Source: Verrucomicrobiia bacterium (GTDB lineage Bacteria; Verrucomicrobiota; Verrucomicrobiia; Limisphaerales; UBA11358). From it: DNA of 36,805 nt. Position 1 is the first letter of the stretch. Each line of letters opens with the position of its first letter. The translations under genes were made by a program, and so were the position numbers. The stretch is from contig DATCFH010000206.1 of the NCBI GenBank assembly GCA_036509625.1, positions 1 through 36,805 on the forward strand. Direction: 5' to 3'. A model generated the notes under the pieces. It was not told the DNA's origin and did no database searches. It was given only the letters and a program-made list of their open reading frames with translations. This document shows, piece after piece, positions 14,195 to 31,995 of the stretch.

Positions 14195-14229
14195 ATTATT
14201 GAAATTTCTAGGGGAAATGTTTGGGCTTG

Positions 14230-15072: not shown

Positions 15073-15138
15073 GTTTGCACCGCCGTGGGATTACAAGACT
15101 AACTTAACACCTGTATTAAATTGTCAAGGTTGCGCCCG

Positions 15139-17384: not shown

Positions 17385-20300
17385 ATGCATAGCCAGTTGC
17401 CTGCCCATCTCATCGCGCACATCAACGTCAAACTCGCCCTCATCGGCTGCTCGCCCGTGCCGCTCGAAGGCGACAAGGAATTCGTCGAGATCGCCGCCGC
17501 GATGGCCGCGCAATCGCGCGAAAAAGACCGGCTGCTCGGCCAGCATCTTTGTCCCGCCGACGCGCGCATCCAGACTTTTCTCTACGATTATTTGCAGGAC
17601 ATTCCCGCGCCGAAATTGCCCGCGCGCACGTTCACGCTCGACCGCGCGGGTCTCGCGCGGGTGCTTTCGCTGCCGGTTGACCGCAATGATTTTTCATCCG
17701 ACATCATCAATTCCTACCGCGTCAAACAAGGCGTTTTACACAATCCGAAAAGCGACCGCCGCACGACCGCCGGAATTTTTCACGTCTGCGAAGGCGGTTT
17801 GCCGATTCCCGACGACAAGCTCGGCGTGCCGAAAGCTACGTTCGCAAAAATCGTCCAGCACGCGCTCACGCCGCCACGCGAACTGCTGAAATTGCCGTTC
17901 ACTTCCACGCAGCCGCAGCCGGCGGAATGTTTCGTCACGCTGTTGATCCGCCCGCTCGTGTGTCCCGAAGTTCCCGGCTTCACCAAAAAGAAAACGATGG
18001 AAGTCCGCTTCTTCGTGCCGGGCAATCTCGTGAGCAATTTGGATTTCGTCGAAGCCATTTTTGAAAACGGCGGCGACCCGTTGCTGCCGGAAAATGACGC
18101 CGCACTCGACACGGAACATTGGAGCGGCCACACCGGCTGCATCATTCTTGCGCCGCATTTGACGAAGCTCACGAAAAAATCCGTCGGTTTGCCGGATTGG
18201 GATTCCGCCACGGAACGCCAGCGGCGCGACGGGATGTGCTGGAAAAAAGAAGACGAACTTTACAACGGCGGCAACGCTTTCAAGCTGACCTGCCGTGACG
18301 AAACGGGCGTCATTGTTACGATTATCGCCGACAATTATTTCGGCTATTGCAAAAAAGAAGTGAAGACGCAGTTGAGTTACGCCGCCAATTTGTTCGGTCT
18401 CGCCGAAGAAGAACACGCGGGCGGCGCGCTCGTTTTTCAGAGCTACGATCTCGGCGAGGAATTCAGCGGCGATGTCCACGTCCGTCGGCTCGGCCATCGT
18501 TTTGAGGAAGTGGCCGCCCTATTCGCCGGCGCGCTAGAGGTGAAGCCGGAAGGCTACGCGGTGGACAAAAAATTTCCGGAGATTCTCTACATTCCGCACG
18601 ACGCGCATTTTGATTTGAAGTCGCAAAAAGTTTCGTGGACGAATGCGACGGGCGATCACGCCATCAAACTTTCGCCGGAAAAAACTTACGTCCGCCCGTC
18701 CGGCTACAAGGTCAAAATGGAAAAACCGCCGGGCGCGGGACGTCAATGGCGGCTCGTCGGCACGGTCGCCGAAGGAACTTTCTGCCACAAGCCCTGCACG
18801 GTTTCCGGCGGCGGCAAATCGGAAATTTCAAAACCGATCACGGACGCAATTTTGACCGGCCCGGTTTTTGTTTCGGATTTGAAAAACGATTTTGACCGCG
18901 TCGAAGAATTGATTGACCGCGATTACTCAAATCGTTTTGCCGACCAGGCGCACACCGACGCGCGCACCGTGCTTTCGCCCGAACGCTCGCTTGGCTCCGT
19001 CATCAAACTGCTCACGCCGGACGAACACGATTACACGCCGAATTACAATACCTGGCTCGCGTCGTTGCCGCAGCACGTCAAGGAACTCGCCTTCGTCGTG
19101 AAGCGCTATTACAAGCCGGAATGGGGCGCGGACTGGCGCGCGCATTTCAGCGTGGACATCATCAACGGCATACCCGGCAACGAACTCAAGTGCGACAACC
19201 GCAAGCTCGTCACGACTTATTTGCGCGTCGGTTTCGACGGCGACGGCGCGTGGCGCACGTTTGGTTTGCGCAAGGATTTTTATCCCGCCGTCAAAGTGCA
19301 GATGGAAGACGATATCACCGCGTCCACCGTTGTGCCACCGGGTTTGCTGGAAGATTTGCCCGCCAACATTGATGAAAACTGCTCGCTTAAGTTTGCCCAG
19401 AACTGTGAACAGCGTTTATTCCAGCGCCCCGACGACGCGATTCATCGCGGCTACGACAAGCAGGCGGAACTGGATTTCGTGCAGCCGGAAAATTTCTTTT
19501 CCAATTACGAACCGCTCACGCCGAAAAATGCGCGCGACATGGTGGAGGACGCGCTGGGCTTCCACGAGTTCACCGAGCCGATGCAAAGGTTCGTGGGCGA
19601 AGTCGCGGCGACGGGCGCGCCGGATTATTTTGTCTGCACCGCGAATCCGCGCATCGTGGACGGCAAGCCGACGAAAAATCCACGCTACTTGCAAAAGCGT
19701 CCCGACCTCGTGCGCGCGAGCGAAACGTATCTGGCGGAAATTTCCGCGCGCCTGCGCCGCCGCGTGCCGCCGGAAAAACCGTTATACACACCGGTCACCG
19801 CCGTGTTGCCGGGACGCCGCAACAATCCGCCGGAAACCGGCATCCGCGCGCTGGCGTGCTACAACCCGATTCATTTCATGGAATTGCCGGAATTGTTCAT
19901 GGAAGTGATTTGCAGCATGACCGGCAAATCGCCTTCGACCACCGGCGCGGGTTCGGAAGGCGCGCTGACGAAAGGGCCGTTCAACGCGCTGCCGCCGATC
20001 ATTGACCTGAACAACGCGCTCGTGTCATTTATTCTTACGGGACAAAACGCGTTTGTGACCGCCGCCGGTTACGTCGGGCCAAATCTGCGTGTGGATCACG
20101 ATGTCAGTTTGATTGTGCCGGAAATCTGGTGTCGCCTGACCGCCGAGGAACGCAATCCGAAATTTCTCATCGCGAACCATTTTCTCGACAAGTGCGCGGA
20201 CTTTGAGCACGACGGTAAAAAAGTTTTGGCGAGCCGGCTCGGCTGGCGCATCAACGCGCGCTTCGTCCACAATTTTTTTGGCCGTATGTTCAACCATCCG

Positions 20301-20801
20301 CAGGCCGTGTTCACCGAGGCGATGCTCAAGCCGGAATTACAGGGCAAAGACATTTTTGCGGATGGCATGGACAACATCGTGGCCACGCAAAAACGCGTCG
20401 CAAAAATGTATTTCGCCGACGGCAGCATCGCGCAGGCGTGCCCGCCGTTGCAGGCGTTGCTGCACATCATGCTCAACGACGAATGGGACGGGAAACAGCT
20501 CGACCATGCGGAGGTTCGGAAACTTTTTACGCGCGAAAACCTGCTGGCAAGCCCGTGGTATGCGGCGCGTTTGGCGGCGAAACAAAAAGTGGATCGTAAT
20601 CTCTGGAAGCGCCACGTCGAATGCTTGAACCAGTTTTTACGCCGCCCGAATTACACGGACGTTTCGGAAAAGCTCGGCATCGCGGACCGCCTCACGGCCG
20701 CGCGAAAAACTTTGGAAGCGGTCGAGTCTGCGGATTATCCGAAGCAACTGGTGGGAACCATCGGTGCGGAGCCGATTGAAAATTACGCGCGCGCAAGTTA
20801 G
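17385..20801 (+). CDS. Large conserved cytoplasmic protein (1138 aa); possibly PPi-dependent phosphoenolpyruvate carboxykinase (tentative)
   Basis: The uninterrupted 1138-codon ORF is very likely real. No signal peptide or TM helix is apparent. A P-loop-like CTVSGGGKSEISK resembles the kinase-1a loop of PEPCKs, and IIADNYFGYCKKE sits where ATP-PEPCKs have IGDDEHGW. The size matches the roughly 130-kDa PPi-PEPCK family. The functional call rests on memory only. Confidence 0.45.
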   Translation: MHSQLPAHLIAHINVKLALIGCSPVPLEGDKEFVEIAAAMAAQSREKDRLLGQHLCPADARIQTFLYDYLQDIPAPKLPARTFTLDRAGLARVLSLPVDRNDFSSDIINSYRVKQGVLHNPKSDRRTTAGIFHVCEGGLPIPDDKLGVPKATFAKIVQHALTPPRELLKLPFTSTQPQPAECFVTLLIRPLVCPEVPGFTKKKTMEVRFFVPGNLVSNLDFVEAIFENGGDPLLPENDAALDTEHWSGHTGCIILAPHLTKLTKKSVGLPDWDSATERQRRDGMCWKKEDELYNGGNAFKLTCRDETGVIVTIIADNYFGYCKKEVKTQLSYAANLFGLAEEEHAGGALVFQSYDLGEEFSGDVHVRRLGHRFEEVAALFAGALEVKPEGYAVDKKFPEILYIPHDAHFDLKSQKVSWTNATGDHAIKLSPEKTYVRPSGYKVKMEKPPGAGRQWRLVGTVAEGTFCHKPCTVSGGGKSEISKPITDAILTGPVFVSDLKNDFDRVEELIDRDYSNRFADQAHTDARTVLSPERSLGSVIKLLTPDEHDYTPNYNTWLASLPQHVKELAFVVKRYYKPEWGADWRAHFSVDIINGIPGNELKCDNRKLVTTYLRVGFDGDGAWRTFGLRKDFYPAVKVQMEDDITASTVVPPGLLEDLPANIDENCSLKFAQNCEQRLFQRPDDAIHRGYDKQAELDFVQPENFFSNYEPLTPKNARDMVEDALGFHEFTEPMQRFVGEVAATGAPDYFVCTANPRIVDGKPTKNPRYLQKRPDLVRASETYLAEISARLRRRVPPEKPLYTPVTAVLPGRRNNPPETGIRALACYNPIHFMELPELFMEVICSMTGKSPSTTGAGSEGALTKGPFNALPPIIDLNNALVSFILTGQNAFVTAAGYVGPNLRVDHDVSLIVPEIWCRLTAEERNPKFLIANHFLDKCADFEHDGKKVLASRLGWRINARFVHNFFGRMFNHPQAVFTEAMLKPELQGKDIFADGMDNIVATQKRVAKMYFADGSIAQACPPLQALLHIMLNDEWDGKQLDHAEVRKLFTRENLLASPWYAARLAAKQKVDRNLWKRHVECLNQFLRRPNYTDVSEKLGIADRLTAARKTLEAVESADYPKQLVGTIGAEPIENYARAS

Positions 20802-20817: not shown

Positions 20818-21576
20818 CTAATCCGGTTTTTCGCCGTAGTTGATGGCCATCGCGCCGCCGAGCAGGTTGATGACGCGGACATTTTTTAATTTCAACGCGC
20901 GCATTTTTTCCGCCACGGCGAGTTGCGCGGGATAATGTTTGAGCGATTCCAAAATGTAGGCGTAAGCCGAGGCGTCGCCGCAAAACAGCCAGCCCATCAG
21001 CGGCACGGACATTTTTAAGTGCGTAAAATAAAGGCTGCGCCAGAGTGCGTTCGCCGGTTTGCCGAAGTCCAGCACGATGAGCCGCGCGCCAGGTTTGGCG
21101 ACGCGAAACATTTCATCCAAACCCCGTTCCCAGCTCGTCAAATTACGCAAGCCGTAGCCGACGGTGACGATGTCGCAGAAATTTTCCGGAAACGGAAGCT
21201 GCTGCGCGTCGCCCTGAAGGAATTGCGGATTGTGGATTGCGGATTGTGGATTTTTATTCTGATTTCCGGCTTCTGACTTCTGGCTTCTGTTGGCGGCGAC
21301 TTCGAGCATTTGCGCGCTGAAATCAAGGCCGATAGTTTCCGCGCCGCCGCGCGCGAGGGCAAAAGAAATATCGCCCGTGCCGCAACAGAGGTCGAGCGCG
21401 CGGTCGCCATTTTTTATTTGCGCGAGTTTGACGACGCGACGTTTCCAAAGCCGGTGCAGGCCGAAGCTTTGCAGGTCGTTCAGAAAATCGTAGCGGCGGG
21501 CGATGCGGGCGAAGAGGTCGTTGACCTTCGCCGCGCGCTGGTCGCCGGGTGCGTAATAGGCGTTGCTCACCCGCAC
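20818..21576 (-). CDS. ubiE: Demethylmenaquinone / ubiquinone biosynthesis C-methyltransferase UbiE/MenG
   Basis: Family motifs VNDLFARIARRYDFLNDLQSFGLHRLWKR, the SAM motif LDLCCGTGD, TVGYGLRNLTSWERGL, and the C-terminal GGAMAINYGEK. Confidence 0.9.
   Translation of the reverse strand: MRVSNAYYAPGDQRAAKVNDLFARIARRYDFLNDLQSFGLHRLWKRRVVKLAQIKNGDRALDLCCGTGDISFALARGGAETIGLDFSAQMLEVAANRSQKSEAGNQNKNPQSAIHNPQFLQGDAQQLPFPENFCDIVTVGYGLRNLTSWERGLDEMFRVAKPGARLIVLDFGKPANALWRSLYFTHLKMSVPLMGWLFCGDASAYAYILESLKHYPAQLAVAEKMRALKLKNVRVINLLGGAMAINYGEKPD
21225..21289. repeat. Two short heptanucleotide tandem-repeat tracts inside the ubiE coding sequence
   Basis: GCGGATTGTGGATT occurs twice in tandem at 21225-21252, which amounts to four 7-nt units GCGGATT/GTGGATT. 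CTTCTGA CTTCTGG CTTCTG lies at 21270-21289. On the coding strand the region translates in frame as RSQKSEAGNQNKNPQSAIHNPQ. Confidence 0.75.
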
Positions 21577-21684
21577 AGTCTAGCGGTGGCGGCGCGCATG
21601 GCAAAGCCGAGAAATGTCTTTGCGCCGGACAGGAGCTTTGTTAGGTTCGGTGCGAAGTTTCAGCGGATTCTTACGAACAAATTT

Positions 21685-22095
21685 ATGAGCACCGGCGGAC
21701 AGCCTAAAAAAATCTTGGTGGTGGACGACAACGAAATTGTCATCAAGACCATTTCCCTAAAGTTGCAGGGGGCGGGCTACCAAGTATTGACGGCCATGGA
21801 CGGTTCGACCGCCGTGTCCATCGCGCGGAAAGAAACGCCGGATTTGATTCTGTTAGACTTGAGTTTTCCGCCAGACGTGGACGGCGTGCCGTGGGACGGT
21901 TTCCGCATCATGGAATGGTTTCACCGGCTGGACAACGTAAAAAAAATTCCCATCATCGTCATTACCGGCACCGATGATCCCTTGGCGAAACAGCGCGCCA
22001 CCAACACGGGCGCGGTGGCCTATTTTCAAAAGCCACTGGAACATGACTATCTGCTGAAAGTCATCCGGGCGACGCTGGGCGAAAGCGTCAAGTGA
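21685..22095 (+). CDS. Stand-alone response regulator receiver protein (CheY-like)
   Basis: ATG at 21685. The sequence KKILVVDDNEIVIKT...DLILLDLSFP...IPIIVITGT...GAVAYFQKP shows the receiver acidic pocket, the phospho-acceptor Asp, and the conserved Thr and Lys. There is no output domain. The longer ORF from 21310 is antisense to ubiE. Confidence 0.85.
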   Translation: MSTGGQPKKILVVDDNEIVIKTISLKLQGAGYQVLTAMDGSTAVSIARKETPDLILLDLSFPPDVDGVPWDGFRIMEWFHRLDNVKKIPIIVITGTDDPLAKQRATNTGAVAYFQKPLEHDYLLKVIRATLGESVK

Positions 22096-22109
22096 CGGAA
22101 AATTCAGGC

Positions 22110-22137
22110 TTGCCAGTCGCGGCGACTGGCTTATGAT
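22110..22137 (+). promoter_or_regulatory. Putative sigma-70-type promoter for tRNA-Gly, overlapping a possible terminator hairpin of the upstream receiver gene
   Basis: TTGCCA at 22110-22115, a 16-nt spacer, then TATGAT at 22132-22137, which is 16 nt before the mature tRNA 5' end. The spacer holds an 8-bp stem with a 3-nt loop (GCCAGTCG-CGG-CGACTGGC, 22112-22130). That hairpin could instead terminate the receiver gene. Confidence 0.35.
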
Positions 22138-22153
22138 ACACAGACCTTTGGAT

Positions 22154-22229
22154 GCGAGCGTAGCTCAGTTGGTAGAGCATCACGTTGCCAACGTGAACGT
22201 CGAGGGTTCAAGTCCCTTCGCTCGCTCCA
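22154..22229 (+). tRNA. tRNA-Gly (anticodon GCC), with encoded CCA
   Basis: I folded the cloverleaf by hand. Acceptor stem GCGAGCG/CGCTCGC, D arm GCTC-AGTTGGTA-GAGC, anticodon arm TCACG-TTGCCAA-CGTGA, variable loop ACGTC, T arm GAGGG-TTCAAGT-CCCTT, discriminator T, then CCA. Total length is 76 nt. Confidence 0.95.
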
Positions 22230-22423
22230 CTCTTTTATTCGGATTTCTGCAAATTCCCGCCACCTTGGCCGAATTTTTCTCGGTATTCGATCCCTTCCCG
22301 CTCATGCTTTATCATGCCGTTTGGTGCGGACTTAAAAAATATCCGGATGCACGGCAGTAAAACATATCCGTCCAACCGATGTGTAAGCAGCGTCCATGTC
22401 GAGATGGAAGCTGACGCAAAACA

Positions 22424-23143
22424 TTAGCGGAGGATTGATTGGTTGGATTTAAGCCATTGCTCAGCCATTAAGTAATCTGGGCACAAACGCTCCACTTCCT
22501 GCCAAAATTTATTGGAATGATTCATCTGCTTACGATGTGCCAGTTCATGCAGGATGATATAATCGCGAACAAATGTCGGCGTCTGAATCAATCGCCAGTT
22601 CAGTGAAATTGTTCCTCTCCTCGAACATGAACCCCACCGTGATTTTTGATTCCTGACTGATACGCGCGAAACCTCAATGCCGTGAAGGGCTGCCAATTCC
22701 ATGACCCGCGCTAGAAATTCCTGTTGAGCGAGTTTACGAAGATACTTTTGAATTGCTGGTCTCAAATCCACAGACACATCACGAAGATCCAACAATTCAG
22801 AACCAAAGCGAATCCGTCCAGCCGTTTCAACCTCAATCCGCACAAGCTCACCCCTAAACAAAATCTCTGTTCCCAGCCTCCATTCAGTTACGGTTTTGGG
22901 TTGTGCGGCTAACCGTTGGAATTGCAGTTCCAGCCAGCCGATGTTTCTTAAAGCAAATTCTGTGGCAGCCTTAATCGAACCCCTCCTCGGAACCGTGACG
23001 CGCGCAACCCCATCCTGTCGTAAGCGTAAAAGATAACGACGGGCACGCGGATGATGCACGAATAACAATGACACCGATCTTGAGCCTACTTGCAAAACAT
23101 CGGTCTTCGGCTCTGGCTTAAATCTAAAAAGTTGGTCGAACAT
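22424..23143 (-). CDS. YgjP/DUF45-type (M48-like) metal-dependent hydrolase
   Basis: The C-terminal signature is WGSCSRRGTISLNWRLIQTPTFVRDYIILHELAHRKQMNHSNKFWQEVERLCPDY, with HELAH as the HExxH motif. I prefer the ATG at 23143; a TTG at 23167 is also possible. The gene is visibly more AT-rich than its neighbours. Confidence 0.8.
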   Translation of the reverse strand: MFDQLFRFKPEPKTDVLQVGSRSVSLLFVHHPRARRYLLRLRQDGVARVTVPRRGSIKAATEFALRNIGWLELQFQRLAAQPKTVTEWRLGTEILFRGELVRIEVETAGRIRFGSELLDLRDVSVDLRPAIQKYLRKLAQQEFLARVMELAALHGIEVSRVSVRNQKSRWGSCSRRGTISLNWRLIQTPTFVRDYIILHELAHRKQMNHSNKFWQEVERLCPDYLMAEQWLKSNQSILR

Positions 23144-23225
23144 TGTGCTGCTAATGTTTTCGCCCAATGCACAGGGAATGTAAAGACGCGGCTGAACGGG
23201 AAATGACTGGCCTACGAAATTGTGA

Positions 23226-23504
23226 TTAATTCATCAACGCCCGCCGTCCGTGACAGTTGCGCCCGTCGAGCAAAAACAAATCGTCGAGTGGAGCGGCTTT
23301 ACGGGTCGCACCGAGCCGGTGGAGTCGGTGGAAATTCGCCCGCGCGTTTCCGGTTACATTCAGGAAGTGCGTTTTCAATCCGGTCAGTTGGTGAAGAAAG
23401 GCGACGTGCTTTCCGTCATTGATCCGCGCTGGCATCAGGCAGTGTTCGATCAGCGCCAGGCTGAATATGGCCACGCCAAAAGCGAGAACGATCGCACCGC
23501 TTAA
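23226..23504 (+). pseudogene. Remnant of an RND/MFP efflux periplasmic adaptor gene, truncated at both ends
   Basis: The fragment translates as [75 protein letters not shown]. This matches the N-terminal lipoyl/hairpin-start region of AcrA/MexA-type adaptors. An in-frame stop at 23223-23225 removes the signal/lipobox region. The frame ends after about 90 codons, overlapping the stop of the SecA-like gene. Confidence 0.6.
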
Positions 23505-25489
23505 ATAGTGTCACCACCCGCGAACGACAGCGCCTCGTCCAGCCGCAAATCGGAACGCACCACGTCTTTGCGTTGCTTGAATGCCAGTGCCTGCGCCTTG
23601 CGCTGGGCAAAGTTAAAAGCCCACTTCGCAATTTTTTCTTTGCCCGGCAAATTACTTTTGACCACGACTTTTTGAACTGGTTTCGGCAGGTATTTGCAAA
23701 TCAACTCGTCCTCAAAACTCACGAATGCCTGCGCGCTGCCGGGATCGCCTTGCCGACCGGCGCGACCAAATAATTGCCGATCCACACGACCAGATTCGTG
23801 CAACTCCGTCGCGATGACGTGCAAGCCGCCCAACGCGACCATGTCTTGACCCAGCTTGATGTCCGTGCCGCGACCGGCCATGTTCGTCGCGATAATAATT
23901 CGTCCTTTTTCGCCGGCGAGTGAAATAAGTTCCGCCTCTTCCTTCAATCGCGTCGCGTTCAAAATTTTTGCTTCCAGCCCGCGCTCGCTCAGCCATTGCC
24001 ACAACCGTTCGCTCGCCAAAACGCTGCGCGTGCCGACGAGCAGCGGTCTTCCCGTCGCGTGCATTTTTTCAATCTCGGCAATGATTGCGCGCCATTTACC
24101 TTTTTCGTCCGCAAAAAATTGATCCGGCAATTGCTTGCGGACGCACGGCTTGTTCGGCGGAATCGCCACCGTCGGCAAACCATAAACCTGCCACAATTCG
24201 CCCGCCGCTTCGCGCGCCGTGCCGGTCATGCCGGACAACTTGTGAAAGCATTTGAAAAATCTTTGGAAACTTAAACGCGCAATTGTTTCCGTCGGATCGG
24301 AAATCGTCAGACCTTCTTTCGCCTCGACGGCCTGGTGCATGCCCGCGCGCCACGAACGTTGCGGCATCGGGCGTCCGGTAAATTCATCCACGATGACAAT
24401 CTTGTCGCCTTCGATGATGTATTGCTGGTTGCGATGAAAAAATTCGCGCGCGACCAACGCTTGAATGACCAATTCCAATCGCCGGTCTTGCCCTTGCCAC
24501 AAGCCGGGCAGATGTGCGGCTTGCGCGACCATTTTTTTCAGACCATCTTTCGTCAGCTCGATTTCCTTGTAGCGCGGATTGGTGTGATAATCAATTTCCG
24601 GCTTCAAGACGGAAATCATTTCCTGCGCGAGTTCGGCGGCGTTGCGGAGCGATTCATTTTTGTGGCTGGCGGAAATTATCAGCGGCGTCACCGCTTCATC
24701 AATCAAAATGCTGTCCGCCTCATCCACAATGGCCGTGTGCAAACCGCGCAAAACCATGCCGTCTTGAACTTCCAGTTGCGGCGCAAGCATCCGGCGAATC
24801 AGGCGGCGTGTTGGATTTTGCATTTTTCCCAGATGCAAACGGTCACGCAAAAAGTCCGCGAGCAGTTCTTTGCTCGTGACGTAAGTAATATCGCAATTGT
24901 AATTTTTTACACGTTCGGTTGGATTGCTCGAACCTGTGACAAAACCAACGCGCACGCCGCAAAAATGGTAGAGCGGCTCCAGCCGTTCCGCGTCGCGCTG
25001 AACCAAATAATCATTCACCGTCACGATGTGGCACGGATGTTTGGTCCAACCCGCAAGAACGGCTGCGAGTCCCGCCGTCAAAGTTTTGCCTTCGCCCGTC
25101 GCCATTTCCGCGAGGTGTCCGCGATGCAACGCCAGCACGCCCACGAGCTGAACCGGAAACGGCCGCAAGCCAAGTTTGCGATCCGCCGCTTCGCGAATCG
25201 CCGCGAGCGCGGGCAGCAGAAATTTTTCCGCCACTTTTCCGCCGCGCCGGAAATGTTCGCGAAATTCCAGCAGCCGTTTTTGCAACTGCGCGTCGGAAAG
25301 TTCAACCCATTCGCGTTCCTGTAAAACGATTTTATCCGCGTCTTGCTTGAGCGATTCGAGGATTTTTTTGCGGCGACGAAACTTGCCGATGCCACTGTTC
25401 ACGAGCGCATCAAGGCCGGCGAGCGGGCGCGGTGGCACGCGATAATCGCTGCGCCGGTAGTCTTGCGTGGGAATCGCAATCATGGGCAT
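23501..25489 (-). CDS. SecA-family ATPase paralog, C-terminally truncated (662 aa)
   Basis: SecA motor motifs are present: [38 protein letters not shown], a PPXD-like segment [28 protein letters not shown], then [26 protein letters not shown] and [31 protein letters not shown]. The protein ends about 90 aa after the last motor motif. Confidence 0.85.
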
Positions 25490-27640
25490 TCAAATCTGAT
25501 AGCGCTTCTGGAGCAGTTGCCAGAGGCTGCGCGTCCAGCGCGGCAACAGCGGCTGCGGCTCCAGTTTGAAACTGATTTTTCCCGAACGACCGTCGAGCAG
25601 CGCGACGCCAGCCTGCGAATTCAAATCACCCAGCACTTCAAAAAACGGTTCGGCGGATTTGTTGCCCTGCGAATTTTCGTCCAGTGCCACCGGCACTTCG
25701 CCGCCCGCGCTCCAGCCGAGTGCCGCCGACGGCAAAATGTGTTGTCCGCCGGGAATCACGCGCCAATGCGCGACGGGCATTTTTTCTCCAGCCGTGCCGT
25801 AAAGCCGCACGTTCGCGCCGTAAATTTTTTTGGCGAACAGCGCGTTCACATCTTCTTCTCGCACCGTCGCGGCAAATTCAAATGCAGCGGGATTCGCGAG
25901 CAAACCCAAATCCGAACCGCGCGGCAGCCAGCGGCCAACGTAATCTTCAATGCCGGGCGCGACCCAAACGCCATCGTGCCGCGCGCGGACGGTCAAATTT
26001 TTCGAATCTTGCGTGAGTTTTTTTAACTCGTCGCTGACGGAATCGCGCAAGCTGGTCAGCGGCGTGATGTCGGCGGAATCTTTGTCCATCGCCTGCAACA
26101 AACGCGCATTTACTTCACCCAAATGCGCGCGCGTATCGGCCAATTCCAAAGTCAGCTCGGAATTTTTCAATTGCAGCAACGGCTGGCCTTGCTTCACCTG
26201 ACTGCCCGATGCGACCAGCAATTCCACAACTTCGCCCGCCGTTTCGCTGGCGACTTGCGTGCGTTGCGTGGCGATAACAATGCCCGGCGCGCGGAACGAA
26301 TACGGAAACGGCACCACGGCGAGCAGCACAATCAAAACCGCCGCGATGCCCGCCGTCACCGCAATGGCGCGTGGACGCACGCGGTCGAGGCGCGGATTGG
26401 AAGAAAGATATTTTACAAAACGAATGACCGGCGCGATTGCCCATGAAATCAAACACGCGGCGGCCATCACGATGCCGATGATTAAAAACCGGTCGGCGAC
26501 GAAAAGCAAAACGCCGCTGAAAACGATGACACGATAAATTCCACTTGTGATGCCAAAAACCGTTAGCCAAGTCGCTTCGCGGCGCGTAGCGGCCTGGGTT
26601 TCGGAATTTTTTACGCCGAACAAATGACGTTCACAGAGATGCCGCAGTTGCGTCGTGGCGCGCTGGTTGAGATTTGGAATTTCCAGCAGGTCGGACAAAA
26701 TATAATAGCCGTCGAAGCGCAGCAGCGGATTGAGATTGAAAATCAACGTCGAGACCGACGCGACGAACATGATGTTGTAGGCGATGCTGTGGACGACGCC
26801 CGGCGCGGTTTTCGACCAGACGAACGCGGCGATGGCGGCAAAAAATAATTCCACAATCATGCCCGCCGCGCCGACGAGCACGCGTTTCCAGCGTTCGCGA
26901 AAACTCCAACTTGAGGTCGCGTCCACATACGGCATCGGCGTAAAAACCATGAGCATCACGCCCATGACGTGAACTTCGCCGCCGAAACGCCGGCAAAAAT
27001 AGGCGTGACCGAATTCGTGCAGCGCCTTGATGCCAATCGTGCTGAGGTAGAGCAGGAATAAATTGTTCGTCGCGAGAATGCCTTCGCCTTGCACACGCAA
27101 GTCGCTGAAATTATCCACGGCAATTTTCAATCCGAAGCCGACGACGAATAGCCACAACAACGCGCCGAACGGACTGATTAGTTTTTTGACGACCGGCATT
27201 GTGCGAACGAGAAAACGATCAGGGTCGAGCAACGGAAATCGCATGAACATGATGTTCAGGAAACGAAAACCGATTTCGCGCTGCTTGCGTTTTTTGTAGC
27301 GCTCAAAAAGCTGCGCGCTATCAGCGGCCAAATCGTATTGCAGCAGATTGGAAAAATAGAGCTGCGACAAAAGTTGGATGACGGCTTCCTGACTCGGCGC
27401 GATGTCGGGAAAACGATTCAAACATTGCTGCCAAACTTCTTCGACAGTGCAATCGGGACGCAAACGCGAGACAAATTCGTAAGCCGCCGGACGCAGGCGG
27501 AAGTATTGGTTGCTGAACGGATTTTCGAGGACGATCCAGCGTTCGCCGCGAAAGTTCTGGCGGCGCACATTGATGGCCGGACGCAGGCAAATCTTTTGAT
27601 TCGCCACGCGATACCAGGATTCGCTAAAGGTTTTATCCAT
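25490..27640 (-). CDS. Fusion protein: PqqD/RRE-like N-domain, M50 site-2 metalloprotease membrane domain and HlyD-type periplasmic adaptor domain
   Basis: The M50 motifs HEFGH and NLNPLLRFDGYY sit in hydrophobic helices. The C-terminal third contains APGIVIATQRTQVASETAGEVVELLVASGSQVKQGQPLLQL plus a coiled coil, as in HlyD/MFP proteins. The N-terminal roughly 100 aa (RLRPAAYEFVSRLRPDCTVEEVWQQCLNRFPDIAPSQEAVIQLLSQLYFSNLL) resemble a PqqD-like peptide-binding domain. Confidence 0.8.
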   Translation of the reverse strand: MDKTFSESWYRVANQKICLRPAINVRRQNFRGERWIVLENPFSNQYFRLRPAAYEFVSRLRPDCTVEEVWQQCLNRFPDIAPSQEAVIQLLSQLYFSNLLQYDLAADSAQLFERYKKRKQREIGFRFLNIMFMRFPLLDPDRFLVRTMPVVKKLISPFGALLWLFVVGFGLKIAVDNFSDLRVQGEGILATNNLFLLYLSTIGIKALHEFGHAYFCRRFGGEVHVMGVMLMVFTPMPYVDATSSWSFRERWKRVLVGAAGMIVELFFAAIAAFVWSKTAPGVVHSIAYNIMFVASVSTLIFNLNPLLRFDGYYILSDLLEIPNLNQRATTQLRHLCERHLFGVKNSETQAATRREATWLTVFGITSGIYRVIVFSGVLLFVADRFLIIGIVMAAACLISWAIAPVIRFVKYLSSNPRLDRVRPRAIAVTAGIAAVLIVLLAVVPFPYSFRAPGIVIATQRTQVASETAGEVVELLVASGSQVKQGQPLLQLKNSELTLELADTRAHLGEVNARLLQAMDKDSADITPLTSLRDSVSDELKKLTQDSKNLTVRARHDGVWVAPGIEDYVGRWLPRGSDLGLLANPAAFEFAATVREEDVNALFAKKIYGANVRLYGTAGEKMPVAHWRVIPGGQHILPSAALGWSAGGEVPVALDENSQGNKSAEPFFEVLGDLNSQAGVALLDGRSGKISFKLEPQPLLPRWTRSLWQLLQKRYQI

Positions 27641-27641
27641 T

Positions 27642-29495
27642 TCACCACCAAAGTTTCATGCGCAGAAAATCCACCGTGCGATGCGTGAGAATCCAGAACA
27701 GCGTGCGTTTCTCCGTGGAAATTTTGCACAGGCCGGTCATGCCGGGACGCCACCATTGCACCGCGCCGTTGTCGGGTTTCAAGCGCACGATGAAAACGTT
27801 GCCGTCTTTTTTGGTGACGGCGGCGGGCTGGACGATTTGCAACGTGACGGGATATTTTATTTTTGGCTGCGTGACGAAAGCGATTTCGCCTTTCGATTTT
27901 CCAAGAATTTCCTGCACGTCGCGCTCGTTGATTTCGGCCTCGACATAAAGCGTGTCAATGCGCGCGACTTTGAAAAGTGCGTCGCCCTGCTTGACCGGCG
28001 ACGCAATGCGTTCACGCAAATCGCCTTCGACAACCACGCCGTCGAAAGTGGCTTTGATGACCGCGTCGTCGAGCCGATAGCGCACGAGATCGAGCCGCGC
28101 CTGTGCCTGCTGCGCCTGCGCGTTGGCAATGCTCATGTCGGCGATGCTGTTGGCGGCGCGCGCTTTTTCCGCCTCGCGCTGATAGCGCACGACATCCGCG
28201 AGCGCGCCCGATTGGTCGAGCAAAAGTTCACTGCGATTCAAACTCACGAGCGGCTGACTTTTGGCAACGTGATCGCCAGCGCGAACAAAAACTTGATCAA
28301 TGTATCCGTCGAACGGCGCGGTCAAATACTCGGCTTCGTCGCTGCGTAAAATGAAATTGCCCTCGACGCGATAATTCACGCGCACGAGAAACAGCGCGAT
28401 CAAAACGACCGCGAGAAAAATTGCGGTGACTTTGCTCCAAGTGTGTTCCGGCCCAAGCCAGCGGGAAAAATACTCGCGCGTGTGCGCCGCCCAGCGCGCG
28501 CCAAACCAGCGGTCGTAATTTTTCAATTCGCTCAAACGGCGCACGACTTGATCGCAGCACAAACGGATTTGTTGAAGTTCAACGGCGGTGAAATTTACGT
28601 CTTGCCGTTCGCACGTCAGCACGCCAACCACTTTGCCGTCGAGGCGCAAAGGAACGGAACAGATGTTGCCGGACTTTTGTTCGGCGGAAAATTTTTCGTG
28701 GTCGCGCGCGACCGTCGTGACGCCTTCTGGCGACGGAAAAAGAATTTCTTCGTCTTGATCCACGCATTCTTCCATCGCAACTTCGAGCGCCTGCGCGGCG
28801 GCCATCTGGCGATTGAACTGCTCGGTGCGGCTCATCGCGCGCAATTTGATGTAGCCGCCTTCGAGCCAGCCGAGGCTTGCGCGATCGCAGCGAAAGCGTG
28901 TGGCGACGCCGTTGCAAAACGCGAGCGCAGCGGAAAGAAATTTGGTCGCGTCGTTCACCGGCACGTTCAAATCCAAAACGGCGGCAAATTTTTCCACGTC
29001 GTTGCGCGATTTTTGCGCGAGCAGATTTTGTTGAAATGCCGTCGGCACATCGGCGACGAGACGCAAACGCGCGAGCGCCTCGTTCGCGGCGGATGCGGTA
29101 AAGTCCTTTAACTGCGCGGCGAAAATGACTTCATCCTCGGCGCGGGAAAGTTTCAAACGCACGGCGATGGTGAAACTGCCGCTGGCCATGTCGGTTTGCT
29201 CAACGAAACTGCCGCTGCTCAAACCGCGTTCGGCGATGGCTTCGAGTTGCGAGGTAAATTGCGTGCGCACACGCGACAAACCGGAGCCGGAATCCCATTC
29301 GCCAATTTTCGCCCAACGTGGCGTTTTGCCAGGATTGCCGAGCAGTAAAACGGCGATGTCCGCCGAAACTAACTTGGCGGCGGCGGCTAAAAAAGTCGGC
29401 CAAAAATTTTTCGGTTCTCCGGAAAACTGGCGCAGCGCGGCGAGTTCGTCCAGCGCGCGGGAAAATTCAGCGTTATTGCCGCCATTGGTTTCCAT
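27642..29495 (-). CDS. Cytoplasmic tandem GAF-like domains, one TM helix and a HlyD-family periplasmic adaptor domain
   Basis: GAF-like endings appear in ICSVPLRLDGKVVGVLTCERQDVNFTAVELQQIRLCCDQVV and in an earlier weaker copy. The TM helix is VTAIFLAVVLIALFLV. The HlyD signature is APFDGYIDQVFVRAGDHVAKSQPLVSL, followed by a coiled coil, IKATFDGVVVEGD and a beta-barrel end. Confidence 0.7.
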   Translation of the reverse strand: METNGGNNAEFSRALDELAALRQFSGEPKNFWPTFLAAAAKLVSADIAVLLLGNPGKTPRWAKIGEWDSGSGLSRVRTQFTSQLEAIAERGLSSGSFVEQTDMASGSFTIAVRLKLSRAEDEVIFAAQLKDFTASAANEALARLRLVADVPTAFQQNLLAQKSRNDVEKFAAVLDLNVPVNDATKFLSAALAFCNGVATRFRCDRASLGWLEGGYIKLRAMSRTEQFNRQMAAAQALEVAMEECVDQDEEILFPSPEGVTTVARDHEKFSAEQKSGNICSVPLRLDGKVVGVLTCERQDVNFTAVELQQIRLCCDQVVRRLSELKNYDRWFGARWAAHTREYFSRWLGPEHTWSKVTAIFLAVVLIALFLVRVNYRVEGNFILRSDEAEYLTAPFDGYIDQVFVRAGDHVAKSQPLVSLNRSELLLDQSGALADVVRYQREAEKARAANSIADMSIANAQAQQAQARLDLVRYRLDDAVIKATFDGVVVEGDLRERIASPVKQGDALFKVARIDTLYVEAEINERDVQEILGKSKGEIAFVTQPKIKYPVTLQIVQPAAVTKKDGNVFIVRLKPDNGAVQWWRPGMTGLCKISTEKRTLFWILTHRTVDFLRMKLWW

Positions 29496-29500
29496 AAAAA

Positions 29501-30226
29501 TTATTCCGTGGTGAGTTGCGCGGAAAGGCCGGGACGAATCTGGTCGGCGGCGTTGTCAAAAATGGCCTTCACTTTCGCGAGGCCGCTCGCGGCGTCCACG
29601 GTCGGCGAGATAAAACAGATTTTTCCGGGAATGATTACGCCGCCATCCACATGGATTTGCACCGCCTCGTCGAGTTGCAAATTGGAAGCGGCTTTGCCTT
29701 CGATGTGGCCGGTGAAATAGCAGCGCGAGGTGTCCACGAGGCGAACAAGCGGTTGATACGGCGCGACGGCGGCGCCGGGTTTGAGCAAGATTTCCGTGAT
29801 GCGCCCGGCAAACGGCGCGATGAGCTGGCGGTTGGCGAGTTGCTGGGCGGCGATACTGTAATCGGCGGCGGCGACATTGTATTCAGCCTCGGCTTTCTGC
29901 ATTTCTTCCTGACTTACGGATTTGGTGGTTTCGATAAGCTGGCGCGTGGAATCAAAAACCATTTTGTTTTGTTCCATCACGGATTTACGGCGCGCGACCT
30001 CGAATGTCTCCAGTTTATTGTCCAACTCCAAAATGGCGTCGCCTTTTTTAACGGCGTCGCCTTCCTTAAAATACTGGTCGCTGATGATGCCGGCGTCGGC
30101 GAGGCCGAGCGTCACGTCCATGAACGGCTCGGTAATGCCGCTGATGGTCACGGGAGCGGCGGCGCGCGCGATGGCAGAAAAATGAATGGCCGCCGCCAGC
30201 ATTAAAATTGGAATGAACTTAAACAT
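29501..30226 (-). CDS. Small secreted periplasmic adaptor (membrane-fusion-protein family, lipoyl plus short hairpin)
   Basis: Signal peptide MFKFIPILMLAAAIHFSAIARAAA. The sequence GIISDQYFKEGDAVKKGDAILELD is followed by a short coiled coil, LIAPFAGRITEILLKPGAAV, and the C-terminal LAKVKAIFDN...IRPGLSAQL. Confidence 0.7.
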   Translation of the reverse strand: MFKFIPILMLAAAIHFSAIARAAAPVTISGITEPFMDVTLGLADAGIISDQYFKEGDAVKKGDAILELDNKLETFEVARRKSVMEQNKMVFDSTRQLIETTKSVSQEEMQKAEAEYNVAAADYSIAAQQLANRQLIAPFAGRITEILLKPGAAVAPYQPLVRLVDTSRCYFTGHIEGKAASNLQLDEAVQIHVDGGVIIPGKICFISPTVDAASGLAKVKAIFDNAADQIRPGLSAQLTTE

Positions 30227-30237
30227 GATTTGGTAAA

Positions 30238-31995
30238 TTAATTGGCGCTGGGGCTGCTCAAAGCGGCGGCGCTGACTCCGTGCAACATCGCGGTGGTCTG
30301 GCGTCTCAACTCTTCGCGCGTGATGTCGAGGTTATGATTTTTCAGAATCGAGCCGACGGTGACTTCGACTTGCAGCAACGAGCGTTGGTATTGCGTGAGC
30401 GCGTTGGCGAGTTCCTGCCGCGCGTCGAGCAAATCGGCTTCGACTTCCAAAACCTTGTGACCGTCCACACGTCCGGCTTTGAGCCGTTCGAGTTGTGTCT
30501 TGAGCAATTCCTCGTTGAAGTGGACGACGGTTTGATAGCTCTGGATGCTTTGTTCCCACGCCTCGGCCTTTTCAATGGAAGTATTGAGACCATTGGCGAT
30601 TTCTGTCTGCACACCTTTCAAGCGGATGTAGGCGGCGTCGAGACTGAGCTTGGAGGCTTGATACAAATTGCGTCCCTTGATGTTGCCGCCCAGCGGCACG
30701 CTTAATTCCACGCCAATCAACCACGAAGGATACGTCTGCTGCTGCGCCATGTTCCACGAACTGTCCGTGGTGAGGCCGAGGCCGTTGAAACCGTAGGCGG
30801 TCTTAAAATCCAGATTCGGCAGCAATTGATTTTTCGCCACGCCGAGCCGCACGCGCTCTTCATCCAATTTTTTTTGCTGAATCAAATAATCGGGATTCAA
30901 GTCAAACGCTTCCTGATAATTGTCCGCGTAGGAAATGGCCGGACTGGTTTCGCGCGGCGTGTCGGTCACGCGAAAAACCGGCTCGCTCGGGCCAGCCAGA
31001 TGCTGGGGAATACTGGTGTCCAAACGCACCTGCTGGTTGCCAAGCGGATCGTAATAATGCCGGAGCGGCGTCGGATTGCCGAGCAACACCCGCAGCGCGC
31101 CCTGCGCATCATAATAACTTTGCAACGCGTCATTCCGTTTGGTGTAACGTAGCGCCAACGCCGATTGCGCCTCCAACACATCAAGCTCCGCGCCCTGGCC
31201 CGCCTTCAATTTTTCGCGGCTGTCGTCCAAAACATTTTGCGCCACCGCCACAGACTGATCGAAGAAATGCACCTGCTCCTGCGAAAAATAAAGATTCCAA
31301 TACGCACTCTCCGCGCGAAACACCGTCACCATCAACTGCTGGCGGTATTCCTGAAAAGCGATGTCCGATTCCAGCGCGGACAGCCGGAGATTGGCCAGCG
31401 TTGGCGTCAGCCAGCCATTTTTCAAAATCGGCTGGGTGAACGTCACGCCCACAAAAGTCTGATACTGCTTGCTCCAATACCCATTCGTTGAAGTTAAAAA
31501 ACTGGCATTCGGATTCACGTTGTTAGCCAGATCGCTCAATGTGTAGCCCAGCCGGATTTTGCCGCCGGTGGGAATCAAATCCTCCACCCCAAAATCATAA
31601 ATATTATTTCGTTCGCTGAAATAACCCTGGCCATTCTGTTGCGCCTGTTGCTGGACATTGTTGGTGCGCTGGTTAGATTCGCGCGTGTAGGCCGCCTGAA
31701 ATTCCGGCTCGAAAATGCCCGCCTCGGCCTTATTTTTGTGCCGCGCGACTTCCGTCTCCAACATTTGCGCCTGCACCGATTCATTGTGCTGCATCACTTG
31801 CGCCAGATAATCGTTCAGCTTGATTCCAATGACCGGAACGTCATTCGTCGCCGCGCTGGATTTTGGCACAAACGCCAGTCCGTCCGCGCCCACGGCCAGA
31901 AATACTAAAACCCTTGCTGACAAGGAGAATAACCATTGCGTCCGCCGCTGCATAAGCTCTGCAAAAAACATTGGACGAAAGCGTAGCAGGGTCAA
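30238..31995 (-). CDS. TolC-family outer-membrane efflux/secretion duct protein
   Basis: The protein shows the two-repeat OEP architecture: LNDYLAQVMQHNESVQAQ...LPNLDFKTAYGF...KLSLDAAYIRLKGVQTEI...LQVEVTVGS. Its N-terminus is signal-like. The start may instead be an internal Met (MQRRTQWLF, about 31953). Confidence 0.8.
   Translation of the reverse strand: MTLLRFRPMFFAELMQRRTQWLFSLSARVLVFLAVGADGLAFVPKSSAATNDVPVIGIKLNDYLAQVMQHNESVQAQMLETEVARHKNKAEAGIFEPEFQAAYTRESNQRTNNVQQQAQQNGQGYFSERNNIYDFGVEDLIPTGGKIRLGYTLSDLANNVNPNASFLTSTNGYWSKQYQTFVGVTFTQPILKNGWLTPTLANLRLSALESDIAFQEYRQQLMVTVFRAESAYWNLYFSQEQVHFFDQSVAVAQNVLDDSREKLKAGQGAELDVLEAQSALALRYTKRNDALQSYYDAQGALRVLLGNPTPLRHYYDPLGNQQVRLDTSIPQHLAGPSEPVFRVTDTPRETSPAISYADNYQEAFDLNPDYLIQQKKLDEERVRLGVAKNQLLPNLDFKTAYGFNGLGLTTDSSWNMAQQQTYPSWLIGVELSVPLGGNIKGRNLYQASKLSLDAAYIRLKGVQTEIANGLNTSIEKAEAWEQSIQSYQTVVHFNEELLKTQLERLKAGRVDGHKVLEVEADLLDARQELANALTQYQRSLLQVEVTVGSILKNHNLDITREELRRQTTAMLHGVSAAALSSPSAN

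Follow-up and report, generated by a model that had tools for sequence, protein, structure and literature searches.

The stretch of DNA analysed here, referred to as the window, comprises 36,805 nucleotides (nt) from a Verrucomicrobiia bacterium (GenBank assembly GCA_036509625.1, contig DATCFH010000206.1, positions 1 to 36,805 of the forward strand) and carries a gene for a protein of 662 amino acids (aa) that is related to the ATPase SecA and is called the short SecA below. This gene is the last of five tightly packed genes on the minus strand, which are separated by gaps of 11, 5, 1, and 0 nt and encode, in this order, a TolC-like protein, a HlyD-type adaptor, a GAF-HlyD protein, a fusion of an M50 protease and an adaptor with a domain that resembles recognition elements (RREs) of ribosomally synthesized and post-translationally modified peptides (RiPPs) (hereafter M50-HlyD), and the short SecA. 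A preliminary description, made from the sequence of the window alone, had proposed that the protein is a SecA paralog that keeps the motor and the preprotein-binding domain and lacks the C-terminal region that engages SecY. The label "paralog" is used because SecA is universal in bacteria; a canonical secA is presumably located elsewhere in the source genome. The short SecA and two of its parts lie at the following positions:

23501..25489, minus strand: short SecA-like ATPase, 662 aa, with an N-terminal extension of about 28 aa, nucleotide-binding domain 1 (NBD1) with an inserted preprotein cross-linking domain (PPXD), NBD2, and one C-terminal scaffold helix
24323..24631, minus strand: PPXD, residues 287-389 (Pfam SecA_PP_bind, E-value 2e-24)
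23525..23644, minus strand: C-terminal 40-residue helix, residues 616-655, the counterpart of the long scaffold helix in SecA (DSSP on the model plus alignment with Bacillus subtilis SecA)

Domain content and predicted fold of the short SecA

The preliminary description had read a full set of NBD1, PPXD, and NBD2 signatures from the sequence, and this reading is borne out by the Pfam domains (SecA_DEAD over residues 39-433, E-value 2e-96; P-loop_SecA, i.e., NBD2, from residue 448, E-value 1e-52; and the PPXD match given above) as well as by the conservation of the catalytic motifs. Among 66 family members, with identities down to 37%, the Walker A residues G131, E132, G133, and K134, residues D255, E256, and D258, and arginines R575 and R578 of the GRxxRQG motif are invariant, and the DEAD-box residue A257 is at least 90% conserved. 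Because the residues of the catalytic motifs are invariant or nearly so, the short SecA is expected to be an active ATPase.

With regard to the C-terminal region, Pfam identified neither SecA_SW (wing/scaffold) nor SEC-C in the short SecA, and a rescan of its last 129 aa at E-values of up to 10 returned the end of NBD2 alone and no SecA_SW. The NCBIfam models for canonical SecA were matched strongly but far below their cutoffs (591 bits versus 814 for PRK12904 and 589 versus 800 for TIGR00963), with alignments that end near model position 600 of about 790, and none of the SecA2 models reached its cutoff (545, 492, 437, and 372 bits versus 1085, 930, 725, and 1100, respectively); by curated models and domain content, the short SecA is neither a canonical SecA nor a SecA2. 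A phmmer search of solved structures aligned its residues 41-647 with residues 13-600 of the 841-residue B. subtilis SecA, with 37-39% identity across the shared part.

An AlphaFold2 model of the short SecA (predicted local distance difference test [pLDDT] 92, predicted template modelling score [pTM] 0.90) comprises NBD1 with the PPXD inserted, NBD2, and helix 616-655; residues 657-661 are disordered, and the protein ends 7 residues past the helix. The top Foldseek matches of this model were exclusively SecA structures (E-values of about 1e-54 to 1e-32), on which it superposes with template modelling (TM) scores of 0.68-0.78. Sequence, profile, structure-prediction, and six-frame searches agree with the proposal that the helical wing domain, the two-helix finger, the C-terminal linker, and the zinc tail are absent, and the protein does end in the scaffold region; it does so 79 aa past the GRQGDPG motif (residues 577-583), and not about 90 aa past it, and the model shows that the scaffold helix is not just entered, as had been described, as a complete 40-residue helix that makes up most of the long scaffold helix is kept. 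Similarly, an N-terminal extension is present as described, with a length of about 28 rather than about 25 aa in the alignment with B. subtilis SecA; this extension is family-specific and includes a conserved GLD around residue 25. A further difference from B. subtilis SecA is an insertion of about 20 residues after DFLRDRL (residues ~221-245; 24755-24829 of the window), which is found throughout the clade described below, is modelled with lower confidence (pLDDT 74-86), and is a candidate partner-docking element. The short SecA may be unable to dock on SecYEG in the canonical way.

The short form as a native property of a SecA clade

An exhaustive HMMER search covered 1.84 billion cluster representatives (50% clustering), and the 150 best matches were considered. 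All of these representatives are short, 144 of the 150 having 630-700 aa (median 663) and a few being partial; 124 of the 144 aligned clade members have no residue past the last residue of the query, and none has more than 12. In five Verrucomicrobiia loci from metagenome-assembled genomes (MAGs), the corresponding proteins, at 60-91% identity, have 663-665 aa and share the C-terminus ...LDEALSF(A/T)GGDTI. A look-up of the exact sequence of the short SecA in databases found no identical entry. In a neighbour-joining tree of 61 short and 63 full-length SecAs over 586 columns, the split between short and canonical proteins has a bootstrap value of 100/100; this value was obtained after the labels of two sequences had been corrected, with L024, an over-extended open reading frame (ORF), assigned to the short clade and L066 to the canonical group. 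Together, these data show that the short SecAs, with their length of about 660 aa, make up a large and monophyletic clade. Its members keep the motor, the PPXD, and one scaffold helix, and natively have no wing domain, no C-terminal tail, and no two-helix finger of the kind that inserts into SecY.

Locus L066 is a useful negative example of how an accidental truncation of SecA looks. Here (L066:9989-12512), a canonical secA is split by a frameshift into a 638-aa ORF and a 135-aa ORF that ends in the zinc motif CPCGSGKKFKNCHG; the protein groups with full-length SecA in the tree, and the downstream ORF is a SEC-C remnant.

The secA gene of the window lies next to an apparent rearrangement. Relative to three close relatives (L093, L094, and L096; 83% nucleotide identity), positions 20820-22229, which encode a UbiE-type methyltransferase and a response regulator, are collinear, and positions 23505-31812, which span the whole operon, are inverted, and the homology breaks off immediately behind the stop codon of secA. 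The 1.27 kb between the two blocks (22230-23504) hold a gene for a YgjP-like metallopeptidase (22424-23167, minus strand) and an adaptor fragment of 255 nt (23250-23504, plus strand), which is an internal part of an unrelated MexE-type resistance-nodulation-division (RND) adaptor (positions 39-120 of 390). The inversion, together with the absence of the giant gene described below, may reflect a genuine rearrangement or a mis-join in the assembly; under both, the secA coding sequence is intact.

The preliminary description had named two ways in which its proposal could fail, i.e., a frameshift that hides a longer C-terminus and the loss of the 3' end in the event that truncated the adjacent adaptor. 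As to the former, tblastn queries and a hidden Markov model (HMM) built from 60 canonical SecA C-terminal regions were run against all frames of the window and, apart from the 3' end of the secA ORF itself, detected no remnant of the wing, finger, or tail. As to the latter, the breakpoint lies after the secA stop codon, and the C-terminus was not lost in the local rearrangement because the relatives and the whole clade end at the same column. A frameshift, a hidden C-terminus, and 3' loss by rearrangement are refuted by the relatives, the common end of the clade, and the six-frame search, and the alignment, structure prediction, and SecA phylogeny that had been suggested as checks place the protein in a separate clade of short SecAs with no intact helical wing domain or two-helix finger. 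The shortness is native and not a local accident.

The operon and its conservation across bacteria

The four genes that precede the short secA, all transcribed in the same direction, are as follows:

30238..31995, minus strand: putative TolC-family outer-membrane factor, first gene of the operon (TIGR01844; PF02321 OEP in relatives)
29501..30226, minus strand: 241-aa periplasmic adaptor with an N-terminal signal or anchor (RND_mfp/HlyD_3; TIGR01730, 140 bits, above cutoff)
27642..29495, minus strand: 617-aa GAF-HlyD protein with a cytoplasmic GAF N-terminal region, one transmembrane segment (residues ~356-374), and a periplasmic HlyD-type adaptor
25490..27640, minus strand: 716-aa RRE/M50/adaptor fusion (daptide_HExxH, E-value 3e-53; motifs; model)

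Three operon genes hence encode a HlyD-type adaptor. The TolC-like product matches TIGR01844 with an E-value of 9e-21 and 74 bits (versus a cutoff of 225), and Pfam OEP is precomputed for the orthologs of relatives. The coordinates given for its gene are those of the longest ORF; the true start probably lies near 31890, because the proteins of relatives are called at 530-555 aa. A scan of the operon for promoters and terminators returned no more sites than shuffled sequences did.

For comparison across bacteria, a metagenome scan with conserved SecA peptides was used, which returned loci with short as well as canonical SecAs and thus has a built-in control. M50-HlyD is encoded directly upstream in 22 of the 27 distinct short-SecA loci that have upstream sequence; GAF-HlyD usually precedes M50-HlyD, and the small adaptor and the OEP/TolC gene are often nearby. 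None of the approximately 62 full-length secA loci from the same scan carries any gene of this module. The exceptions among the 27 loci are L002 and L003, in which the short SecA is accompanied by a giant gene only, L009, and L028 and L033, which have little flanking sequence. In L009 (1355-7758), the order is short secA, OEP, a 423-aa adaptor with Cds6_C, and a shorter, 467-aa GAF-HlyD; a gene for a solute-binding protein occupies the upstream place of M50-HlyD, and this contig breaks off too early to include any M50 gene.

The preliminary description had also pointed to the start codon of secA abutting the M50-HlyD stop codon (TGAATG), a junction that is indeed seen in the sequence, and had drawn from it a tie between the two proteins. 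This tie is stronger than claimed, given the 22 of 27 loci and codon overlaps across phyla: the stop codon of M50-HlyD and the start codon of secA overlap in L004, L007, L010, L022, L040, L092, and L097. The conserved overlap suggests that M50-HlyD may be a stoichiometric partner of the short SecA. Carriers of the module include Verrucomicrobiia, a Planctomycetota MAG, Limnohabitans isolates (in which the short SecA is labelled "hypothetical protein" in RefSeq), and the cultured roseobacter Pseudooceanicola batsensis HTCC2597, and homologs of M50-HlyD are named from Salipiger abyssi, Roseobacter, Novosphingobium, Hyphomicrobiales, Gammaproteobacteria, and Burkholderiales. The module is conserved across at least three phyla, i.e., Verrucomicrobiota, Planctomycetota, and Proteobacteria (Alpha- and Beta-), and the genetic coupling of the short SecA to M50-HlyD, GAF-HlyD, a third adaptor, a TolC-like channel, and giant proteins with an LEPR-XLL motif looks obligate. 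We regard the clade and the conserved module as real with high confidence. Full-text searches, the coverage of which ended at subscription-only papers, returned no description of the clade or the module, and the clade is apparently undescribed.

In proteobacterial and planctomycete modules, the space between the giant gene and GAF-HlyD repeatedly holds a small gene for a DUF3467 protein of 90-118 aa (L007:4884-5943, L011:1544-1816, L092:4974-5330, and L097:7119-8097), most often followed by a gene for an unannotated protein of 200-233 aa; both genes are missing from the operon of the window. A role of DUF3467 as a SecB-like chaperone found no support, as no PDB sequence matched and hhalign against Escherichia coli SecB gave a probability of 0.1%, in a weak comparison made with 4 sequences and an unverified SecB template.

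The M50-HlyD fusion protein

M50-HlyD consists of a cytoplasmic PqqD/RRE-like domain (residues ~17-96), a site-2-protease-like M50 domain with about seven transmembrane helices, and a periplasmic adaptor (residues ~444-716). The M50 motifs HExxH (H208, E209, and H212) and NxxPxxxxDG (N302, P305, D310, and G311) are located in transmembrane helices and do not vary among 43 homologs with identities as low as 29%, which suggests that the M50 membrane domain of the fusion is catalytically intact. The best curated match is daptide_HExxH over residues 19-402, with 181 bits and thus below the cutoff of 300; we take this model to represent the intramembrane protease for daptide leader peptides. The YydH/LiaK model is likewise matched below its cutoff (36 versus 225 bits). 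A PqqD match is weak in the protein of the window and is precomputed in many homologs, several of which NCBI names "PqqD family peptide modification chaperone".

In an AlphaFold2 model of M50-HlyD (pLDDT 82), four strands and three helices at the N-terminus are followed by about seven transmembrane helices and the adaptor. The N-terminal arrangement may correspond to the pattern of RREs. The modelled adaptor has lipoyl, alpha-hairpin, and beta-barrel parts and is matched by Foldseek to MacA, MexA, and AcrA, which dock on TolC-type channels; going by the model, it appears to be an adaptor of the MacA/MexA type.

Giant neighbours and their N-terminal motif

A very large gene usually lies beside the module. 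In the closest relatives, the gene directly downstream encodes at least 4748 and at least 5128 aa, and in the verrucomicrobial loci the contigs end before the giant genes do; large ORFs are cut by the contig end in L007, L011, L012, L017, L019, L022, and L030. In P. batsensis, a gene for a giant protein of 12,228 aa lies directly upstream of the module. The domains that can be recognised in the giants are bacterial Ig (Big_9), cadherin-like, and dockerin domains, and the C-terminal 2361 aa of the P. batsensis giant contain Big_9 and cadherin-like domains only.

Wherever the N-terminus of the adjacent giant is readable, it matches LEPR-XLL (NF012209) above the cutoff (25-33 versus 17 bits), which is the case in six distinct loci (L001, L002, L003, L005, L012, and L017); a typical sequence is KNTFQLEALEPRVLLSADAL. 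In a control with a regular expression, 7 N-termini of the LEPR-XLL type were found in 326 kb of short-SecA loci, versus 1 in 874 kb of canonical secA loci. Read from the sequence, the LEPR-XLL region carries charged residues (two Glu, an Arg, and an Asp) at the place that the hydrophobic core takes in a Sec signal. The motif of the giants matches the consensus RRLxxExLExRxLLA, which Studholme et al. proposed in 2004 as a novel export signal. Pfam represents this signal by Planc_extracel (PF07595), and since the NCBIfam LEPR-XLL model is matched above its cutoff, it is plausible that the two motifs are identical.

Other genes of the window

In the window, no N-terminus of the LEPR-XLL type was found near the operon, and the sole match to the regular expression (~3749) lies inside an RNase R-like ORF and looks like chance. 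The substrate gene appears to have been separated from the operon by the rearrangement in the window. An ORF of 1138 aa (17385-20801, plus strand) has no Pfam or NCBIfam match at the thresholds used and no LEPR-XLL motif, and is therefore not an obvious cargo.

A CHASE2 adenylate/guanylate cyclase is also encoded in the window, as is a protein that combines cyclic-nucleotide-binding and 4Fe-4S domains (15121-17262 and 8166-9890), and in relatives a response regulator gene is found just upstream of the operon; judging from the GAF, cyclase, and regulator genes, small-molecule or two-component control of the module is possible. Other genes at 10606-12270, 13319-15072, 2273-4753, and 32049-33251 encode a multihaem cytochrome c, two FecR-domain proteins, an RNase R-like exoribonuclease, and ThiH, and none of these appears to be connected to the finding reported here.

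A possible export mechanism and alternative explanations

We favour, on balance, the interpretation that the short SecA serves as cytoplasmic ATPase in a dedicated, envelope-spanning exporter that is similar to type I systems but has a SecA-type motor in place of an ABC transporter, and we consider it rather likely that the adjacent giant proteins are what this system exports. That the exporter bypasses SecYEG is a further step, to which we would give somewhat less than an even chance. Taken as a whole, the proposal would amount to a new class of protein secretion system in Gram-negative bacteria, in which a SecA-derived motor acts on a TolC/HlyD conduit, SecYEG is bypassed, and the RRE-protease-adaptor protein serves as receptor, leader peptidase, and inner-membrane platform; this would be the long-missing machinery for the LEPR-XLL/"planctomycete extracellular" signal on giant proteins of Planctomycetota, Verrucomicrobiota, and Proteobacteria. 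We put this full proposal forward tentatively, as one that falls just short of being evenly balanced.

In such a mechanism, the PqqD/RRE-like cytoplasmic domain of M50-HlyD would recognise the N-terminal LEPR-XLL leader of the unfolded giant, and the GAF domain of the second adaptor may help to bind it. The short SecA would dock on M50-HlyD and GAF-HlyD rather than, or not only on, SecYEG, with the conserved N-terminal extension possibly forming the docking contact, and would clamp the chain and push it from N- to C-terminus at the expense of ATP. The chain could then pass through an inner-membrane assembly of the M50 and adaptor transmembrane helices into the adaptor tunnel and on into the TolC-like channel, and the M50 active site could remove the leader, as the C39 peptidase domain does in bacteriocin ATP-binding cassette (ABC) exporters.

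A number of observations weigh against this interpretation. Its weakest link is that no known protein-conducting inner-membrane channel is found among the operon products, and we know of no site-2 protease that conducts polypeptides. Any physical link between the short SecA and M50-HlyD is conjectural, being deduced from gene neighbourhood and domain logic. With regard to the cargo, the giant gene that follows secA in relatives is absent from the window; the planctomycete locus L092 has the machinery and no giant gene; and in the two Verrucomicrobiia loci in which the short secA is directly followed by a giant LEPR-XLL gene (L002:7818-13889 and L003:8007-17995), no M50-HlyD, GAF-HlyD, or TolC genes are present within 8 kb upstream, so that where the module is split the motor remains beside the cargo gene. 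With regard to the signal, the giant N-termini are unreadable in the proteobacterial loci obtained, P. batsensis included, and Planc_extracel matches the giant N-termini at the right position with sub-threshold scores (10-14.5 versus 25.5 bits). In addition, a giant Vibrio protein with LEPR-XLL is reported to end in RTX and serralysin domains, which are characteristic of classical type I secretion driven by ABC transporters (PMC10868602), and LEPR-XLL may therefore not be the translocation signal.

Since the operon products include no known protein-conducting channel, a two-step route through SecYEG is the main rival, although we consider it unlikely. Under this explanation, the short SecA is an accessory motor like SecA2 that feeds giant LEPR-XLL preproteins through the housekeeping SecYEG, perhaps together with canonical SecA, after which the M50 protease clips the N-terminal anchor in the membrane and HlyD and TolC carry the chain from the periplasm to the outside. 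The PPXD, NBD2, and the long helix, which are retained, make up much of the face that contacts SecY in solved complexes, and the best superpositions of the model are on SecY-bound or substrate-engaged SecA (6itc_A, TM score 0.78; 5eul_A, 3dl8_A, and 3din_A, 0.76), although the conformer picked by the structure predictor is given little weight here. Site-2 proteases, moreover, normally cut membrane-embedded segments, which fits a signal-anchor intermediate. These points are countered by the clade-wide absence of the two-helix finger, wing domain, and tail, by a conserved extension that precedes the canonical N-terminus, and by the module having no linked secY paralog. The overlap with the M50-HlyD stop codon, which suggests that the stoichiometric partner is M50-HlyD, and the charged residues (E, E, R, and D) in place of the hydrophobic core of a Sec signal also argue against a SecYEG route, as does the behaviour of E. 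coli SecA-N68, which is cut at a similar point and has deregulated ATPase activity and no translocation.

An explanation that we consider improbable is that the short SecA is a cytoplasmic holdase/unfoldase or gatekeeper and that an ABC transporter encoded elsewhere translocates the giants via HlyD and TolC. The type I features of the Vibrio giant would fit such a role, as would L002 and L003, which keep the short SecA beside the giant gene and have no membrane genes. However, neither the operon of the window nor any of the related loci examined has a gene for an ABC exporter within the module or next to it, the sole ABC genes, in L097, being an importer set with TOBE and a solute-binding protein; furthermore, the short SecA is tightly coupled to a membrane protein and not to the substrate.

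Even less probable is a RiPP-like system for the maturation and export of small peptides, with the giant genes as coincidental neighbours. The daptide_HExxH and YydH/LiaK models match the M50 part of M50-HlyD, and PqqD matches and protein names ("PqqD family peptide modification chaperone" and "putative peptide zinc metalloprotease") point in the same direction, but all of the model matches are below the curated cutoffs (see above), the gene tables of the loci, in which short precursor ORFs were not screened for, list no radical-SAM or other modification enzyme, giant genes recur beside the module in several phyla, and a short peptide would not need a motor that clamps and pushes a polypeptide. 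Finally, a truncated or broken canonical secA (a pseudogene, a frameshift, or an assembly artefact tied to the rearrangement) can practically be dismissed: the breakpoint within a few bases of the stop codon and the RND adaptor fragment that abuts secA on the other strand might have suggested it, but relatives in intact contexts share the C-terminus at which the whole clade ends, no C-domain remnant is present in any frame, and the genuine frameshift in L066 differs in its SEC-C remnant and in grouping with canonical SecA.

Significance

SecA is among the best-studied molecular motors and, to our knowledge, is thought to work only with SecYEG. If the interpretation that we favour is true, the SecA motor would have been re-used on a different conduit, with its SecY-inserting and regulatory C-terminal elements dropped and an intramembrane-protease-adaptor protein as its partner instead; this would be a fourth kind of energiser for tripartite envelope systems, would provide a testable machinery for the export of bacterial proteins of 5,000-12,000 residues, and would supply a candidate recogniser of the LEPR-XLL/RRLxxExLExRxLLA N-terminal motif. 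The cultured carriers (P. batsensis HTCC2597, S. abyssi, and Limnohabitans spp.) make genetics and biochemistry feasible. The labels that the components currently bear (i.e., "preprotein translocase subunit SecA", "hypothetical protein", "PqqD family peptide modification chaperone", and "biotin/lipoyl-binding protein") hide the system.

Comparison with known systems

With canonical SecA (TIGR00963/PRK12904), the short SecA shares the NBD1/NBD2 DEAD motor with all catalytic motifs, the PPXD in NBD1, the first long scaffold helix, and the fold. It differs from canonical SecA in the absence of the wing domain, two-helix finger (IRA1), C-terminal linker, and zinc motif, in its extra residues (about 28 at the N-terminus and about 20 in the insertion after DFLRDRL), and in its placement in a separate clade (100/100), and it was never found in canonical secA neighbourhoods. 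The E. coli fragment SecA-N68 (PDB 5k9t) and the DEAD motor 3bxz, which were retrieved by sequence and by fold, have nearly the same content, i.e., the motor and the PPXD; however, SecA-N68 is a laboratory fragment, whereas the short SecA is natural, conserved, and widespread and has the 40-residue scaffold helix and the N-terminal extension.

The SecA2 proteins (mycobacterial TIGR04221, accessory Sec [aSec] TIGR03714, Listeria NF012136, and Bacillus anthracis TIGR04397) are likewise second, specialised motors with restricted substrates, which in the aSec systems are large adhesins. SecA2 proteins retain the C-terminal helical domain and work with SecY or SecY2; solved SecA2 chains have 778-786 residues, and the short SecA instead has M50-HlyD, HlyD, and TolC as its partners. 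No secY2 or asp genes were found in the operon or in related loci, the corresponding places being taken by M50-HlyD, GAF-HlyD, HlyD, and TolC, and no secY paralog is linked to the module.

Type I and tripartite systems resemble the module in their TolC-family channel, to which the TolC-like product of the operon would correspond, in their HlyD-type alpha-hairpin adaptors, and in the large, repetitive, adhesin-like cargo encoded alongside, and peptidase-containing bacteriocin ABC exporters also have a leader-type peptidase built into the inner-membrane component. The module differs from these systems in having a SecA-like motor in place of an ABC, RND, or major facilitator superfamily (MFS) transporter, an M50 protease fused to an adaptor, and a candidate signal at the N-terminus of the cargo. 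A major review of tripartite systems (PMC8277102) gives only ABC, RND, and MFS energisers; the text searched includes no M50 protease and three mentions of SecA, which concern SecYEG/SecDF.

The nearest published observation is that of giant proteins of Omnitrophota and Actinobacteria which embed a SecA motor and PPXD without the wing/scaffold, coexist with a normal SecA, and for which a role of the embedded module as an exporter has been proposed (West-Roberts et al., bioRxiv 10.1101/2023.11.21.568195). These modules and the short SecA have in common a motor with a preprotein-binding domain, the lack of the wing/scaffold, and the tie to giant proteins; in Omnitrophota and Actinobacteria, however, the module is located inside the giant polypeptide next to its transmembrane segments, whereas the short SecA, with about 660 aa, is a separate protein encoded in an operon with M50-HlyD, GAF-HlyD, HlyD, and TolC.

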